From Podarcis vaucheri (lineage: Eukaryota): a stretch of DNA of 64,000 bases. The notes below the pieces were generated by a model. That model searched no databases, was not told the DNA's origin, and saw nothing but the letters and a program-made list of their open reading frames with translations. The DNA is taken from NCBI GenBank assembly GCA_965113315.1, contig OZ220368.1; one strand, written 5' to 3'. Shown one piece after another: positions 51,964 to 62,552 of the stretch. Position 1 is the first letter of the stretch, and each line of letters starts with the position of its first letter. The position numbers and the translations under genes were made by a program.

Positions 51964-52300
51964 AGAAGGGTAAAGGGACCCCTGACCATTAGGTCCAGTC
52001 GTGGCCGACTCTGGGGTTGCGGCGCTCATCTCGCTTTATTGGCCGAGGGAGCCAGCGTACAGCTTCCGGGTCATGTGGCCAGCATGACTCTGGCGAACCA
52101 GAGCAGCGCACGGAAACGCAGTTTACCTTCCCGCCAGAGCGGTACCTATTTAACTACTTGCACTTTGACGTGCTTTCAAACTGCTAGGTTGGCAGGACCA
52201 AGCAACGGGAGCTCACTCTGTCACGGAGATTCGAACCACCGGCCTTCTGATCAGCAAGCCCTAGGCTCTGTGGTTTAACCCACAGCGCCACCCACGTCCC
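51964..52300 (-). mobile_element. Sauria SINE, full length
   Basis: Head gggacgtgggtggcgctgtggg with B box ggttcgaatc and a 3' ccctttacc tail. 14-bp TSD ttgctctaagtata (51950-51963, 52301-52314). Confidence 0.95.
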
Positions 52301-53206: not shown

Positions 53207-53568
53207 GGGTGGCGCTGTGGGTAAAACCTCAGCGCCTAGGGCTTGCTGATCACATGGTTGGCGGTTCGAATCCCTGCAGCGGGGTGAGCTCCCGTCTTTC
53301 GGTCCCAGCTCCTGCCCACCTAGCAGTTCGAAAGCACCCCTAAAGTGCAAGTAGATAAATAGGTACCGCTTTCTAGTGGGAAGATAAACGGCGTTTCCGT
53401 GTGCTGCGCTGGTGCCGGCTCACCAGAGCAGCTTCGTCACGCTGGCCACGTGACCCGGAAGTGTCTCCGGACAGCGCTGGCCCCCGGCCTCTTAAGTGAG
53501 ATGGGTGCACAACCCTAGAGTCGGACACGACTGGCCCGTATGGGCAGGGGTACCTTTACCTTTACCTT
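53207..53568 (+). mobile_element. Sauria SINE (second subfamily)
   Basis: A box tggcgctgtggg, B box ggttcgaatcc and (ACCTTT)n tail. 11-bp TSD tatctctacaa (53196-53206, 53569-53579). Confidence 0.95.
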
Positions 53569-56500
53569 TATCTCTACAACGTCTCTTTATGTTTTGCTTC
53601 TTTTGGGGACATTATACATTTAGGAAATGTGTCCAAGGAACCAATGAAAGCCGTGCCACTCAATAAGTATGTGTAAACTGACTCATGCCTGTTTGCTCAC
53701 AGCATTTTATTCATGAATCAATGGAAACTGAGTACTTGTTTTTCTACATACATAGTCTACACACAAACTATAGCTGTTTCTGTCACATGAGATGGAGCCT
53801 GCCCTAAACCACACTACTTTCCTTCAAAAAGTGTTTATTGCTTTTCAGGATAAGTACAAGATTTGTGTATGTAGGGATGTTTAGATGGGGACAAAAGGGG
53901 AAAAATGTTTATTTTAATCCATATGTTCAGTTCGGTCACCTCAAATGCTAATCTTTTGCATATCCTTCCAACCTAAAAGTTCATTTTGCCAAGTCTATTG
54001 TTGTACTGCTTTGCACCAGAATGAAGGGGGGGGGGGAATCAATCCCAAACTACTGGTGCGAAGCTAAATTCCCTGCTCATGCTGGTTACTCCAACAGTTT
54101 ACCACCACCTATAGCGGCTATGCTGGCCAATGTACTTTATGCACCACTTGCCAATACAGTATTTGCAGCTATGTTCTCACCTGCTTGATAAACTTCAGGA
54201 ATGTGCCTGTGCAAAGCCCGTTGTTGCACCCCAACACTGTCATATGTTCCTGCTCCCATCAGCAACCAGCAGAAATTGGGAAGCTCACACTGCCAGGGAT
54301 GCTGAAGGCCCTATGTCCAGGTTAACAGTGTTGGATGGAGCCTGAGGGTGTAAGGGTGTTACGAAAACAGCTTCCAAGTTCATGAAGCACAGTCCAAAAG
54401 ATGATGATGTGAACATTTTCATCAAAAAGTGGCACTCCTTCAGGTGTAGAGCATGTTTCAAGTTTACAACTGTTACTAAACTGCAGCCCACAGCAAAACA
54501 TTGTGGAACTATTTACCCGAATTATACAATTGAGAAGCATTTGAAACAATCCTACCACCGTGAAACCATTCTGACTGTCAACCTTGATTTTGACATCTGT
54601 GAAAACTGCAGTCTTCAGGAAAAGCAATATCCATGGCCAATGAAAAAATAGCAGACAAAGCTGGCATCCTTTTCCTGTACACAGATGCAGATGCAATGAA
54701 ACTGACTCTGACATGCATACTCATTTCCCACAAGAATAGTTGTGAGTAAAGGAGCACCTGCTTTTTTCCTTTTCCACTGAAGAATCAGTATGTAGGACCA
54801 AGATGAACTGGGCCACAGGTTCCCTATCCCTGGCATAGAATCAAAGAGACAGTAAAAGCAAGACAGCAGATGTGGTTTAATGGGATTTCCTCACAGGTTT
54901 GTATGCAAAACTGCTCACACCACACAGTCCAAGACCATCTCAAAACAAATTAAATGCTGATATGCTCAGAATAATTTGAAGGGCAGGGCACAATTCTGTC
55001 TTTCCTTTGTTTTGTACTGCTACGTAATGTATGTACTGTTTAAGTCGAATCCAACGTGAGTCAACAAATGCCTTTGAATAGTCATGTCAGGCGGCAGTGG
55101 CTCCAACCCCCACGGCAGGTAGCCAGGAATGGCTAAGACAAGGAAAAGTTCTTACCAACAGCTTTTTATCCAATATTCACAGAGAGAGGCTTGGAAATGT
55201 CGCCTCTTGGAATAAGGGCATTGCTTCGAGTGGGTCTCCACCCCCTCCCTCTCTCCCTTCGTGCATCATCACTACAGGTGCTGAGAAGTGCCCTCAGCCT
55301 TTGAGCTCTTTGCTTGCCGGGTTCTGGGAGGGGGTCTGGAATGCCTTCTAAAGACACTGTGTCCATCCTCTGTTGCCCCTCTGGTGCTTCTTCTTCTTCC
55401 TCCTCCTCTCCCATGATAATTCTGAACTGTCTTCTTCTCTGGAAGAGTCAGGCTGGGGAGGCAGTCTTCACCATTCCTTTTCTGCACAGTCCCTAACAAG
55501 TCAGTGGTGCTCCAACATTCCTCAGATGAAAATAAGGACATTCTGTTCTACATCACTATCACTGCTGGGGTGGGCTCTTTTTCTTTGCACGTTAAGATTT
55601 TTATTAAAGTCTTTCATGATACAGATACCCCCCCAAAGCCCAGCTAGCTCCAGTGCCAATCCTTGACCCCCATAACCTCCTTGCCCCCCTCAAACTCTAG
55701 CCTCCCTCAGGCCTGCCTGCACTCTGCCAGCTACACACTCCCCACCCCACACACCCTGGGGCCTGCTCCTGCTCAGGGTTTCCTCCAGCCGCCACCTTCT
55801 CTTATAAGCCTGACCTGGCTCACTTCCTCCTTCTCGTTTTTATTCAGCATGGCTGAAGGAGGAGAAGGAGAAGGCAACCTCAGTCAACAACTTCCTCTTC
55901 CCCCCACTTCCCCCATGTGAAGCCATTTCCTGTCAGCGTACATCAGCAAAGATGAGAATTTGGGACTCTGCATGACAAAGTGAGAAGCCTTAAGGTTTTT
56001 TTGTGTGTGACAGTCCTGGCAGTTGGAGACTATGCACCAGCAGCAGTGCTGGACTGGCTCAGCTGCTGTGTCCCCCACAGCTTTGGTCTCACTGCTGTCC
56101 TTTTCTACTTTGTCCAGGTAAGCAGCTGTGAAGCTGCTGTCAGGAGGGCAGCTCTACCACATTGCTCCTCCATGCTGGCTGCGGAAGCTGGTGAAAAGGC
56201 ACTTGTTGCCACCCACCATCATCTGAATATCTAAGGAAAGCATCAGGTCAAGGAATTCTGCCAAACTGTATGCCTGCTTCTGCGTGCGATGGCTGGGTGT
56301 GGAGTGCAGTCTAAGCTAGAACAGGTGGTATAATGGACTCCCACACCATTGCAATTCCTAACTAGCACTTCCCTATCTTATCTGCATTAAGATTTCGCTT
56401 GTTGCACACATTCCTGAACTGAGGCCAGATTACAACATGCTTTTTTTGTCACCTTGATTACATTTACTGACCTAAGAGCTAGAAACATAGTTTCTAAACA

Positions 56501-58217: not shown

Positions 58218-59697
58218 TACATGAATTGAAACACAGCTGTCTTTTGAAATTTGCTGTTGTCTGAATTTTGCAATTGGTTCTCCAAACGGTGTTTAGAAAA
58301 ATGCATACATTTAGAGAAAGTGTGCATAAGAATGAATATTTTAGTGGGGAAAATGCACACAAAAATGCATTATATTAAGGACAATTACTTGCAAATGTGT
58401 ACATTACTCGCAACTGCATACAAGTGTGTTTATTAGGAGAAATGTAACTAAAATTCTGGTGAATTTTCATCAACATTGGTTTTAAAAATAAATAATTCAC
58501 AAATTGTGAAATTGTGAATTGTGAAACGTGGAGAAATAAATTTAAGATGGGAAAAATAAGAAACCAAGAGAACCTAAATGAACAGATCCTTCCATCTCTT
58601 CTGGAAGGTCAGGATTAGCCTCCTACTGGCCTACTTTTCAGCTTCTCAGGGTAATTCCCAGTACTAATCACATCTCTCTCTCTCTTTTTACTTCCTTTTA
58701 CTTGTGTTTCACTTGTGCTTAGCCCTGAAAAGCAGCCCATTCTACTGTTGGACAGTCCCTCAACTGCCAGCCACTTCTGACCTTCCTGATTAGGTAGCAG
58801 AAAACCTTTCATATTTCCCCATGAATATTAGACTGTTCAGTAGAGATTGAAGTAGACCAGGAAACAGATTTATTTTCTTTTACTGCAGAGACTGTTGCCC
58901 CCATTTCCCCCATTTATTCTTCTGTAATAGAACTCAATTAATTTAATGCTTGGGCTTGACTGGATTTCTGTACTGCCCAGGGAGATACACTTCTTCACAA
59001 AGCTACCTAGACCACTTGAATTACGCTCCAGGATTTATGTTAATAGGAGATAAGGAAAGGGAGATGGATTGATGCTTGTCTGGCAGGAGACTGGCAATGC
59101 AGCTGATAGACCCCTTAATTCTGGTTAAATAAATTGCGAACCATGTGAAGCTCACTTGTCCTGGCTTAGGCCTCCTGGGCATGAGTGGTGGCAGATGTAA
59201 CAAAGTGGGGGATATGTTGCCAGTGGTCTGCCTGTAGTGGTTAGCACTGGGAAGTTGATTGCCTGCCATGGCTGGAAAAGCAATATGATGTTTTGGGAAA
59301 AGATTGTGCCCAGCATCCCATAACAATTCATGTGGTGCTATTTCTGTTGACAGTCCAGATTCAGCAATGCACAGGATCTGACAAATAGTAGCACACCTGC
59401 CTATTACTGTATTGACCTGACATTGCTGACAAGGGAAGGATTTCTGGAAAGCAGGCTAAATGGATAGGTATTTATCTAGCAATCTTTATATATCACACAA
59501 TCACAAAATAATCACAAAAACAGACTTTTATTTATAAACAGGATGGAATGATCTAAATGTGAATAACATCAATTTTTCAAATGCTGGCAAAAGCCAGGTA
59601 CAACTTATGCCCGTCCCCCAAAATGGGGCGTTCTGGGGACGTAGTGCCATGTGGTGAGATAGGACAAGGTAAGATTTACACCTATTCCAAATCCCTT

Positions 59698-59743
<46 letters not shown>

Positions 59744-60032
59744 TTTATTAAAAGTTTAAAAATTAAAGAGAGAAATAAGAAAGAAAGAGAAAAAATAAAC
59801 AATACAGATCAATACATTACAGTACATATAAAAAAAGCAAAAGACACATCTAAATAAAAACAAAACAATTAAAAACACATCCAATATTTCCATATTTTTA
59901 TCTTTCATTAACTTGTTTCATCGACCTCCTCACACCTCCCTTTTTGTGTTCTAGTTATTAATTATTTCAGCAAATCCTTTCCATCTTTCACTGTTTTCTG
60001 TCATTTAATTATCTTAATTTATTTTAACCTTA

Positions 60033-60397
60033 AAGGTAAAGGTAAAGGTACCCCTGCCCGAACGGGCCAGTCTTGCCAGACTCTGGGGTTTGTGCGCCCA
60101 TCTCACATCTATTGGCCGGGGGCCAGCGCTGTCCGCAGACACTTCCGGGTCACGTGGCCAGCGTGACAACGCTGCTCTGGCGAGCCAGAGCCGCACACGG
60201 AACGCCGTTTACCTTCCCGCTGGTAAGCGGTACCTATTTATCTACTTGCCCCCGGGGGTGCTTTCGAACTGCTAGGTTGGCAGGCGCTGGGACCGAGCAG
60301 CGGGAGCGCACCCCGCCGCGGGGATTCGAACCGCCGACCTTTCGATCGGCAAGCCCTAGGCGCTGAGGCTTTAGCCCACAGCGCCACCTGCGTCCCC
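60033..60397 (-). mobile_element. Young Sauria SINE nested in the L1-like 3'UTR
   Basis: CpGs are intact, with A and B boxes and an (ACCTTT)3 tail. 13-bp TSD tattttaacctta (60020-60032, 60398-60410). Confidence 0.95.
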
Positions 60398-60415
60398 TAT
60401 TTTAACCTTATCTTA

Positions 60416-60534
60416 AGAAATGTTATAAGGAGTTAAGTATAAATAAGTTTCAGGGTTTTAATGGTAAGATTTTAACCTTATCTTACCATTAAAACCCTGA
60501 AACTTATTTATACTTAACTCCTTATAACATTTCT
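60416..60534. repeat. Perfect 55-bp inverted repeat with 9-nt loop
   Basis: 60416-60470 is the exact reverse complement of 60480-60534. Confidence 0.97.
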
Positions 60535-60567
60535 ACTAAAGCCGTATAATTTCATTCCAACATTTTT

Positions 60568-60687
60568 CTAACACTCATTAGTTTTACAATATTTCTCTAA
60601 ATAAACTTTTTTCCAATCTTCCTCCACCGTCTCTTCTCCCTGGTCTCGGATTCTGTCAGTCCTTTCTATCAATTCCATATAGTCCAT
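60568..60687 (-). pseudogene. 39-aa remnant of the L1 ORF2 C-terminus (MDYMELIERTDRIRDQGEETVEEDWKKVYLEKYCKTNEC*)
   Basis: Manual translation. It resembles squamate L1 ORF2 ends (MDYxELAxMTxRIRxQxxExxEEDWKKF). Its ATG overlaps the upstream TGA. Confidence 0.65.
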
Positions 60688-61364
60688 CAACCTGGTGACC
60701 TTCTGTCCGAGGCTCTTAACTCTTTTCCATGTCCCTTCTGCAGATCTTCTTCATATTTATACATGCACTTTACTTTGTCTTCTGCTGATCCTGTTCTTAA
60801 TTTCCTTCCTTTGGCACTGAGGAGTAGATCTCGGGGAAACTCCAACCTAACAATGTCTTTATTCCTTCTCGACAGGTCAGCCCATTCTCCATAGTCAGAA
60901 CTAAAGTCCAAAAAATATTTCAGAGCTCCAATCTCCCCCTGACCCAAATCCAAATCCCAAAGGCCAGAACATCCCTGCATAAGAGGATCTATCCAACTTT
61001 CCTTCTCCAATCCAAGCAGGGCTCCATCCCACCAAATCTGGCTTTCTCCAGATTCGATCATAAAAGGTAGCAGCTTATGTTCATCAAATTGCCTCTGTGA
61101 GGCCGGGGCTCTCTCCACTTGAATTACTTGAGGTTCAACAACATCTTTCTCCTTCGTCTTCTCCACAGCTTGCCATGTCAAAACAAATTCCTGAACCAAA
61201 TCCTGAGTAGTTTCTGCATAGGTATTCACTTTTTGTCCCAAATCAGTCATTTTTTGTCCCAAATTGTCAATTTTAATAATCCTCACATCCGTCTTCTCAT
61301 GAAGCTGTTCCAATAAGGCACTTGTCTTGCAAAATGCAATCACCAAGGCTTCTTCTGTCAACAT
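60687..61364 (-). CDS. L1 ORF1p-like protein (225 aa), transposon-encoded
   Basis: Longest ORF in the window. It has an N-terminal heptad/coiled-coil pattern (LLEQLHEKTDVRIIKIDNLGQKMTDLGQKV) and a C-terminal IVRLEFPRDLLLSAKGRKLR resembling the ORF1p C-terminal domain. It lies downstream of an L1-like 5'UTR. Confidence 0.65.
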   Translation of the reverse strand: MLTEEALVIAFCKTSALLEQLHEKTDVRIIKIDNLGQKMTDLGQKVNTYAETTQDLVQEFVLTWQAVEKTKEKDVVEPQVIQVERAPASQRQFDEHKLLPFMIESGESQIWWDGALLGLEKESWIDPLMQGCSGLWDLDLGQGEIGALKYFLDFSSDYGEWADLSRRNKDIVRLEFPRDLLLSAKGRKLRTGSAEDKVKCMYKYEEDLQKGHGKELRASDRRSPG

Positions 61365-61949
61365 TCTTGTCCAAGGTCAATCTCTGATTCTCACGGTCTT
61401 TAATCTCTACAGCTGGAAAATTCCCCAGCTCCACTCCTGCAACAGTTTCAAAAGCTCCCTCTAGAGGAAACAATTTCTATTTGTATCAATCCTTTTAAGC
61501 ACAGATCCAGCAACAAAGTTAGTTTCGATTTTCAGTTATTTTTTTACTCCCTTTTAAGTGCAAAAGGAAACAATGGAAACAATATATTTCTCTTATTTAA
61601 CAATCTGTCAACATACATTTTATTCAGAGTCAATGAACTTTCCCAAAACGTCAATCTCGCTGGCAGCCCGTTCCCAGGTTCGAAACGGGGGTAATTTATC
61701 TTTCTTCACTCTCTCTCCTGCAGGCTTGAACGATCTAAAATTTTCCCCCTCTTCTCCTTCTTCCAAGGGGGGTTTAGTAATTTTAGCCGATGGGGATTTA
61801 ATCCTTTACAAAGAGACTTTCCAGGCTTTAGCTTGCAACGTCTTTGCTTCAATCTATTTACAAAAAAGGAAGGCGGACTTCCTGTTTGGAACCTTCCCGT
61901 TTCAATGCCAAATTAAGATATTTAGAGATCCAATTTTCTGTTCTACTCA

Positions 61950-62277
61950 CGGGTAGTTGTTTAGAGTCCAATTGTCCACAGGAAAAAGTCAGCGCTCTCC
62001 GGCAGCAGCAATGCGGCTTCACTCCGTGAAAGAAGCAGTCGATTCGAAGCACTGCGCCACTCACCCCACGTCGCTCCGGATCCCTGAAACCGGGTTTCCC
62101 CGCGAGTAGGGGAGGCGCAAAAGGTGCCAGCCGAATCCCACGTCCACAGGCTTCTCCCGCCTGTGGTTTTTAATGGGTCTCCACCTCGCCGTGGCAGTCC
62201 AGACCCTAATTTCCATGGAGCAGATTCCTCCCGATCAGAGGAAATCCGCCATTGCCGGAGGCGCTAACCTGGAAGTC
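61950..62277 (-). promoter_or_regulatory. Internal Pol II promoter / CpG-rich 5'UTR of the L1-like element
   Basis: Local CpG enrichment, an ETS-like ggaagt at 62271-62276 and a YY1-like ccgccattg at 62246-62254, close to the element 5' end as in vertebrate L1s. Confidence 0.6.
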
Positions 62278-62552
62278 CCTATTCCAAATCCCTTTCAGTT
62301 CAGTCACATGATCTAGCAGCCCAGTCAGACTTAGCTGGTGAAAAGGGTAGTGTAATCAAATCCCTACTGAATGAAGTTTGGAACAGGGGTGACTTATGCT
62401 GGCATAACTTTTGCTGGCTTACTTAGGATTGCTCTGTTAAAGATGGATGCCTTGTGAGCGCAGAATGAACATTATGTGACACTTGTAAAAGTGCCAGTGC
62501 CACAGATCAAAGCAGTCATATATGAGTGAGTTAAAAGTCTCCAACGTTTAAC

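Follow-up and report, generated by a model that had tools for sequence, protein, structure and literature searches.

A dwarf L1 family of the lizard Podarcis vaucheri keeps a shrunken ORF1 open with little constraint on its amino acids

The element described here is a dwarf L1 retrotransposon located in a window of 64,000 nt (throughout, the whole stretch of DNA analysed) from contig OZ220368.1 of the Podarcis vaucheri assembly GCA_965113315.1. It is a member of an abundant mobile family, here called family A, and not a one-off deletion, and its open reading frame (ORF) stays open while the amino acids that it encodes are near-neutral. The initial annotation of this DNA had described a 2.58-kb unit (about 2.1 kb without a nested short interspersed nuclear element, SINE, and a fold-back) bounded by identical 18-mers and composed of a CpG-rich 5' untranslated region (UTR), an ORF1 of 225 amino acids (aa), the last 39 codons of ORF2 and a 3' end, and had read it as a mobilised, non-autonomous L1 derivative. 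The boundaries, the size and the open frame were found as described; the two 18-mers are exact and are the only two occurrences of that repeat in the window. The first 300 nt have a GC content of 58-61% and contain 22 CpG, and the observed/expected CpG ratio over the first 400 nt is 0.86 versus 0.23 for the window. Both the nested SINE and the fold-back proved to be additions, missing from the other 29 copies selected by the junction between the ORF1 and ORF2 parts.

The window's own genome was searched with a junction query of 361 nt, giving 3,296 candidates, from which 40 loci were scored; candidate numbers, here and below, are not copy numbers. All 39 scored loci other than the window copy covered at least 353 nt of the query at 94-96% identity, a result which rules out a single post-insertion deletion of one L1 copy. 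Many loci share this junction and each has a different target duplication, which bears out the mobilised non-autonomous family that had been proposed. A protein search with the dwarf ORF gave 6,879 candidates, with 77-100% identity among the 150 scored. Altogether 79 family-A loci were fetched, and 68 of them were aligned after 7 that were missing an end and 4 that were incomplete or internally deleted had been dropped. Both ends were present in 62/79 loci, and 45 of these 62 carried a target duplication of 9-21 nt, starting with AA or GA in 26 cases. A short T/A tract ends 44 of the 45 duplication-bearing copies; the AATAAA and (ATT)n tail of the initial annotation are both present, but the (ATT)n end is peculiar to the window copy. 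The 68 aligned copies are 85-99% identical, with a median nearest-neighbour identity of 96.9%, and the closest sampled copy to the window element is 96.6% identical to it. Since 41-52% of the dwarf's words were present in six DNA data sets from four organisms, and since the annotation of Podarcis lilfordi lists two relatives as hypothetical proteins, the dwarf lineage spans species. Four runs that were merely guessed to be RNA gave contigs over 28-29 of 30 bins, and are no evidence either way on expression. On one contig of 41 Mb (G000 C41) matches to L1 and to the dwarf were strongly over-represented and the insertions were nested; this contig might be a non-recombining sex chromosome.

Searching 1.84 billion proteins with a profile gave 22 matches, all of which we read as dwarf-type proteins or as proteins bearing a lizard-type L1 ORF1, and one of them led to a parent L1 family (L189-L196) in the same genome. 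These parent elements are about 6 kb long, with an ORF1 of about 390-400 aa and an ORF2, and the dwarf is colinear with them except for three gaps. At the DNA level the identity is 76-78% in the 5' UTR, 66-68% and 77-78% in two ORF blocks, and 78-85% over the ORF2 end and 3' UTR; at the protein level the two blocks are 46% and 64% identical to full-length ORF1, which upholds the suggested similarity to L1 ORF1p. Two L1 families with intact ORF2 and the L144/L146/L151 family were rejected as parents, being more distant (65-74%). The profile of the parent ORF1 matched human ORF1p (E 2e-5), and its model, with a mean predicted local distance difference test score (pLDDT) of 69.2, contained a coiled coil (56-162), an RNA-binding domain (RRM, 165-255) and a C-terminal domain (CTD, 259-320); the ten best matches in a fold search were all human ORF1p (E 5e-11; PDB 2YKP/2YKO). 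Pfam gave no family for the dwarf ORF or the ORF2 remnant and no Transposase_22 for the full lizard ORF1s, and a search of the ESM Atlas with the dwarf protein gave only matches under 0.9.

The first of the three deletions (about 165 nt) took away the original start together with the opening 51 codons of ORF1, and an internal methionine now starts the frame. The second took out 126 nt (42 codons, parent residues ~211-253), corresponding to strand 3, helix 2 and strand 4 of the RRM, and its ends show a 3-nt microhomology; the third removed everything from the tail of ORF1 to the last 41 codons of ORF2. An extra loss of 39 nt (RRM strand 2) is found in the window copy and three others (4/68 copies). 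What had been taken for ORF1 is, by this alignment, only part of one, and its middle, which had been left unrecognised, corresponds to RRM strand 1 and helix 1 according to the parent alignment and the model. The dwarf aligns to the 5' UTR and ORF1 of the parent and then solely to the ORF2 end and 3' UTR, so that endonuclease and reverse transcriptase are absent, as had been noted, and an autonomous L1 is ruled out. A spliced L1 of the SpIRE type was rejected because no GT...AG was seen at the deletion ends (by eye, in three junction alignments). The supposed 39-codon ORF2 peptide does derive from ORF2, but the remnant amounts to 41 parent codons and its frame is not kept: a stop follows after two codons in 34/68 copies and after 28 in 17/68, and the window copy is 8-10 nt shorter at this point and consequently reads as 39 open codons. 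Re-initiation on the remnant at an overlapping stop-start was likewise rejected, the remnant frame being closed in most copies and showing no constraint. Because the basic N-terminus and half of the RRM are missing and there is little amino-acid constraint, the dwarf product is unlikely to be a working ORF1p, contrary to the initial annotation; the basic N-terminus is required by human ORF1p (PMC5940361).

Selection on the ORF was estimated as omega (the ratio of nonsynonymous to synonymous rates) from pairs of copies, from shared versus private variants, and over whole trees. For the 22 intact copies of family A maximum likelihood gave 0.77-0.80, whereas the parent ORF1 (6 copies) had 0.31-0.35 and a different L1 ORF1 (6 copies) 0.15-0.17; all sets contain post-insertion neutral change, internal branches making up 25% of the parent set and 37% of the family-A set. 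Related dwarf families described below gave 0.57-0.59 (family B, 19 copies), 0.76-0.81 (E) and 0.82-0.84 (F). Between dwarf and parent omega was 0.75-1.22 (10 pairs), and the nonsynonymous to synonymous ratio was equal for variants shared by at least 3 copies and for private ones (0.56 vs 0.62, p 0.56). The frame behaves otherwise. Seven of seven ORF indels found in at least 3 copies are in frame, compared with 6/37 in the UTRs (p 4.5e-5) and with 6/28 private ORF indels (p 2.6e-4), and stop codons are private in 12 cases and shared in one (p 0.04). The amino acids of the ORF are near-neutral while the frame stays open. The ORF is intact in 34 of the 68 aligned copies, or, by the route through which copies were selected, in 11/24 (junction DNA), 7/24 (5' UTR) and 15/19 (protein).

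These values bear on the idea that the ORF is a vestige without a role, its openness coming from a few master copies that founded subfamilies and from picking by protein search. That idea agrees with an omega near 1, with the low proportion intact among copies picked by 5' UTR, and with a sister family (D, below) that lost its ORF yet is highly active. We nevertheless regard it as improbable, as the in-frame excess among shared indels is confined to the ORF, the frames are open though the proteins have diverged to about 31% identity, and the fusions in families E and F are both in frame.

Three sister families have the same 5' start and tail as family A, with shorter and strongly diverged ORFs: B (L071:7616-8218, L082-L101; 201-209 aa, 2,792 candidates, 62-100% mutual identity), C (L152-L163; about 205 aa, 3,928 candidates) and G (L209-L218; 193-202 aa). 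Target duplications were seen in B and C where the ends were found; B and G also lack part of the CTD. In a tree of the ORFs, families A, B, C and G fall on one side of a 100/100 branch and all L1 ORF1s on the other, with long branches, while a tree of the 5' UTRs places family A next to the parent group, as its sister, with B, D and G standing apart. This conflict may reflect either exchange of the 5' UTR or unequal rates. Family D (L065:4453-6182; L164-L178) is about 1,727 nt long, with 520 candidates and 99.7-99.9% identity among 6 copies, and is probably spreading at present; its only ATG-started frame to reach 35 aa is an upstream one of 68 aa. Three of its 15 fetched copies lie within telomere-type hexamer repeats (L168, L169, L178). 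Families E (L197-L200, L204-L206; 2.2 kb, a single frame of 281-286 aa) and F (L201-L203, L208; about 2.3 kb, a single frame of 270-271 aa) are separate deletions of the same parent, in which the ORF1 coil is fused in frame to pieces of ORF2 and most of the RRM and the whole CTD are missing. At L072:438-2288 there is another internally deleted L1, which has a target duplication and in which the 5' UTR runs directly into the final part of ORF2. One predicted protein (P0009) looks, by eye, like a TRIM-type RING, B-box and coil attached to the RRM and CTD of a lizard L1 ORF1p; it may be either a gene-prediction chimera or a domesticated fusion. A broken piece of the parent ORF1 recurs at intervals of 9-20 kb close to the termini of several long contigs (L207; G000 C10:134.93-135.03 Mb, C25:107.80-107.91 Mb, C1:0.15-0.19 Mb, C17:0.12-0.18 Mb, C19:0.28-0.30 Mb and C26:0.57-0.60 Mb), apparently inside a subtelomeric repeat unit.

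The domain losses bear on two accounts in which the protein matters. The model stated for rat HAL1 (PMC2241872), a functional ORF1p that binds and chaperones its own RNA in cis, is favoured by a CTD remnant that shares 64% identity with the parent and evolves more slowly than the rest of the ORF in family A, and by a HAL1-like reporter that requires functional ORF1p (PMC11260458). For the dwarf it is very improbable: the basic N-terminus is gone and so is half of the RRM, the CTD is damaged in B and G and missing together with most of the RRM in E and F, and the model of the dwarf protein has a disordered middle and a mean pLDDT of 39.6 versus 69.2 for the parent (with 15-row alignments, weak evidence). 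Alternatively, the coiled coil might join helper ORF1p trimers on the ribosome and so draw the RNA of the dwarf into the particles of the helper, as has been proposed for the HeT-A and HAL1 proteins. For non-autonomous LINEs that have an ORF1, multimers formed with helper proteins are the published guess (PMC5786205), and all three independent deletion lineages (A-B-C-G, E and F) keep the coil and lose the RRM wholly or by half. Heptad periodicity was found in 5/7 tested N-termini (p < 0.05, related sequences), and the first 40 codons of families C and G have omega values of 0.09 and 0.33, respectively. Over the same codons, however, omega is about 1 in A and between families (1.02, 0.87, 1.32), and over codons 1-60 it is 0.66-1.10 relative to the parent; the 5' part would also be left in place by a lone internal deletion of any kind, as long as the start codon escaped it, family D spreads without a coil, and coil-bearing fragments of the human protein suppress L1 and do not help it (PMC5605252). 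Such hitch-hiking by the coil is possible, though we think it unlikely.

On balance we lean towards the reading that the dwarf is copied in trans by L1 and that what has been selected is an open, translatable frame rather than an RNA-binding protein. Internal deletions of an L1 would have given rise to the family, whose RNA would be transcribed from the inherited 5' UTR, in line with established L1 biology, and translated from the internal methionine. The ORF2p of a helper L1 would then copy this RNA in trans by target-primed reverse transcription; mobilisation in trans is suggested because the copies have an A-rich tail and 9-21 nt duplications and lack endonuclease and reverse transcriptase. 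Passage of ribosomes may benefit the dwarf by stabilising its RNA or by placing it on ribosomes at the sites where helper ORF1p and ORF2p are made. RNAs made by polymerase II require ORF1p besides ORF2p (PMC2666806), and a dwarf with a broken RRM likely gets ORF1p from its helper. Candidate helpers are two other, autonomous L1 families (L051-L058; L074-L081) in which many ORF2 frames are intact, measuring 1,274 and 1,248 aa from stop to stop.

The end of the protein is unlike the rest of it. Across 13 lineages (78 pairs) the last 11 residues are 73% identical versus 31% for the body, and 12 of the 13 end in R-x-P-G, with the stop after P-G occurring in three different sequence forms; two near-duplicates (P0002, and P0003 with its I-D-P-G end) and the tail-less P0007 and P0012 were left out of this set. 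With no filter applied, family B has no window more conserved than the tail (0/173 lower). Both -PG (KLHDC10) and RxxG (APPBP2) are C-degrons, although the optimal glycine for APPBP2 is given as position -2 or -3 (PMC7458402), while that of the dwarf is at -1, and the motif sits at the extreme C-terminus in 12/13 lineages. Because truncated, coil-bearing human ORF1p suppresses L1 in trans (PMC5605252), the dwarf would have reason to destroy its product; speculatively, the R-x-P-G end could mark the product for destruction and so spare helper ORF1p trimers from poisoning by the coil. A broader proposal, that lizard L1s repeatedly spawn parasites which use the frame as a ribosome runway and cap the junk product with a degron that protects the helper's ORF1p, and that this genome retains every stage from LINE by way of a half-L1 to an ORF-less, SINE-like element still on the move, strikes us as quite unlikely.

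Several observations weigh against selection for an open frame as such. Family D is the youngest sister and has no ORF, so that an open frame is not needed in every lineage. Of the 68 aligned family-A copies 19 came from the protein search, as did every copy of B, C and G, and that search is biased towards open frames. For B and C the omega estimates are 0.70 and 0.55 and their intervals stay under 1, which, like the low values for the first 40 codons within C and G, indicates some protein constraint. An intact ORF2 was found in 0/8 sampled loci of the parent family. For the tail, the lineages were recruited by a profile that contained it, and in family A, unfiltered, 38/210 and 176/210 other windows are as conserved as the tail. 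These tail bases could also form a 7-pair hairpin, unbroken in 20/20 sequences with no compensatory change, and constraint at the peptide level and at the RNA level both fit the tail data.

The dwarf is a HAL1-like variant with an unusually complete decay series. Mammalian HAL1, as set out in the passages cited, is also a non-autonomous L1 without ORF2 which keeps the 5' UTR, an ORF1-derived frame and the 3' end, reaches high copy number and has more than one origin from one L1 lineage (PMC5753468, PMC5786205, PMC2241872, PMC13756887). Loss of ORF2, amplification after the deletion and an open frame homologous to ORF1, by which HAL1 is there structurally defined, are all found in the dwarf. 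The usual model assumes for HAL1 a complete ORF1p (coil, RRM and CTD) that can bind RNA (PMC2241872, PMC11260458), whereas the dwarf ORF1p is by its sequence incomplete, and the hosts of HAL1 as described there are mammals, whereas that of the dwarf is a lizard. Unlike HAL1, the dwarf has a gutted, near-neutral ORF1, a graded series of sisters down to no ORF, and two ORF1-ORF2 fusion families. The ORF1p of HAL1 evolves faster than that of L1, as has reportedly been published already. HeT-A (Jockey clade) and Ag-Sponge (CR1 clade) resemble the dwarf in having one ORF1-type frame and no reverse transcriptase, and their product has been suggested to form multimers with helper proteins (PMC5786205), but they belong to other clades and hosts, and the dwarf frame is kept with little amino-acid constraint. 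RIME, NARTc, Bov-A and Vingi derivatives, like family D, consist of 5' and 3' parts with no long ORF; a 2018 listing names only the RTE, Ingi, Vingi and R2 clades as sources of ORF-absent bipartite elements (PMC5786205), whereas family D derives from an L1 and seems to have passed through a HAL1-like stage. Among the papers listed by literature searches on HAL1 and lizard L1 derivatives, none described a HAL1 in a lizard, and the families may already be catalogued in Repbase/Dfam.

The usual answer to why ORF1 is retained is that ORF1p binds its own RNA, and in this successful family the frame has outlasted the RNA-binding domain. With regard to how the L1 machinery picks RNAs in trans, the natural variants in this genome could serve to separate translation, recruitment by the coil and RNA binding, and the same genome holds independent repeats of the deletion event together with a very young ORF-less end point. 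If the frame does serve as a runway for ribosomes, the series would amount to a natural experiment on what makes translation or ORF1p necessary for the retrotransposition of polymerase II RNAs. Dwarf elements number hundreds to thousands, and their annotation as hypothetical proteins would inflate lizard gene and L1 counts.

The features of the window copy are collected in Table 1. Its 5' UTR is presumed from sequence to be an internal promoter, and its first bases have what we take to be a likeness to ETS and YY1 cores. Fourteen residues of the protein's tail come from the parent ORF1, and the deletion junction creates the final glycine and the stop, the latter provided by the ORF2 remnant out of frame.

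Table 1. Anatomy of the dwarf L1 and its private insertions (positions in the window).
Feature	Position	Strand	Basis or remark
Target-site duplication, 3' side of dwarf L1	59681-59698	.	exact 18-nt repeat
Target-site duplication, 5' side of dwarf L1	62278-62295	.	exact 18-nt repeat
Whole dwarf L1 (family A)	59699-62277	minus	2,579 nt; ~2.1 kb minus private insertions
5' UTR, presumed internal promoter	61365-62277	minus	76-78% to parent L1 5' UTR and composition; first 300 nt CpG-rich
Upstream ORF, 5 codons, inside 5' UTR	62252-62235	minus	
Shrunken ORF1, 225 aa + stop	60687-61364	minus	codons 61364-60690; start is internal Met (parent residue 52)
Coiled-coil part, ~aa 1-108	61041-61364	minus	aligns to parent helix 56-162; shorter than parent's
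RRM remnant (first strand + helix)	60921-61040	minus	parent alignment and model
CTD remnant, ~aa 149-210	60735-60920	minus	64% to parent 259-334, tail included
15-residue tail ending R-S-P-G	60690-60734	minus	
Predicted 7-pair hairpin	60690-60713	minus	within tail region
Remnant of last 41 ORF2 codons	60568-60688	minus	non-coding in most copies
3' UTR, interrupted by fold-back and SINE	59744-60567	minus	ends in AATAAA
AATAAA	59749-59744	minus	
(ATT)15 tail	59699-59743	minus	private expansion
55-nt perfect inverted repeat (fold-back)	60416-60534	.	private; adjoins SINE 5' end
Nested Sauria-type SINE	60033-60397	minus	(ACCTTT)n tail
SINE's own 13-nt duplication	60020-60032, 60398-60410	.	

The 55-nt fold-back likely arose when the SINE inserted. 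Sauria SINEs are described with a tail and a T-first duplication like those of the nested copy (PMC13295347). Two further Sauria-type SINE copies were read by eye elsewhere in the window, at 52000-52300 and at about 53209-53570.

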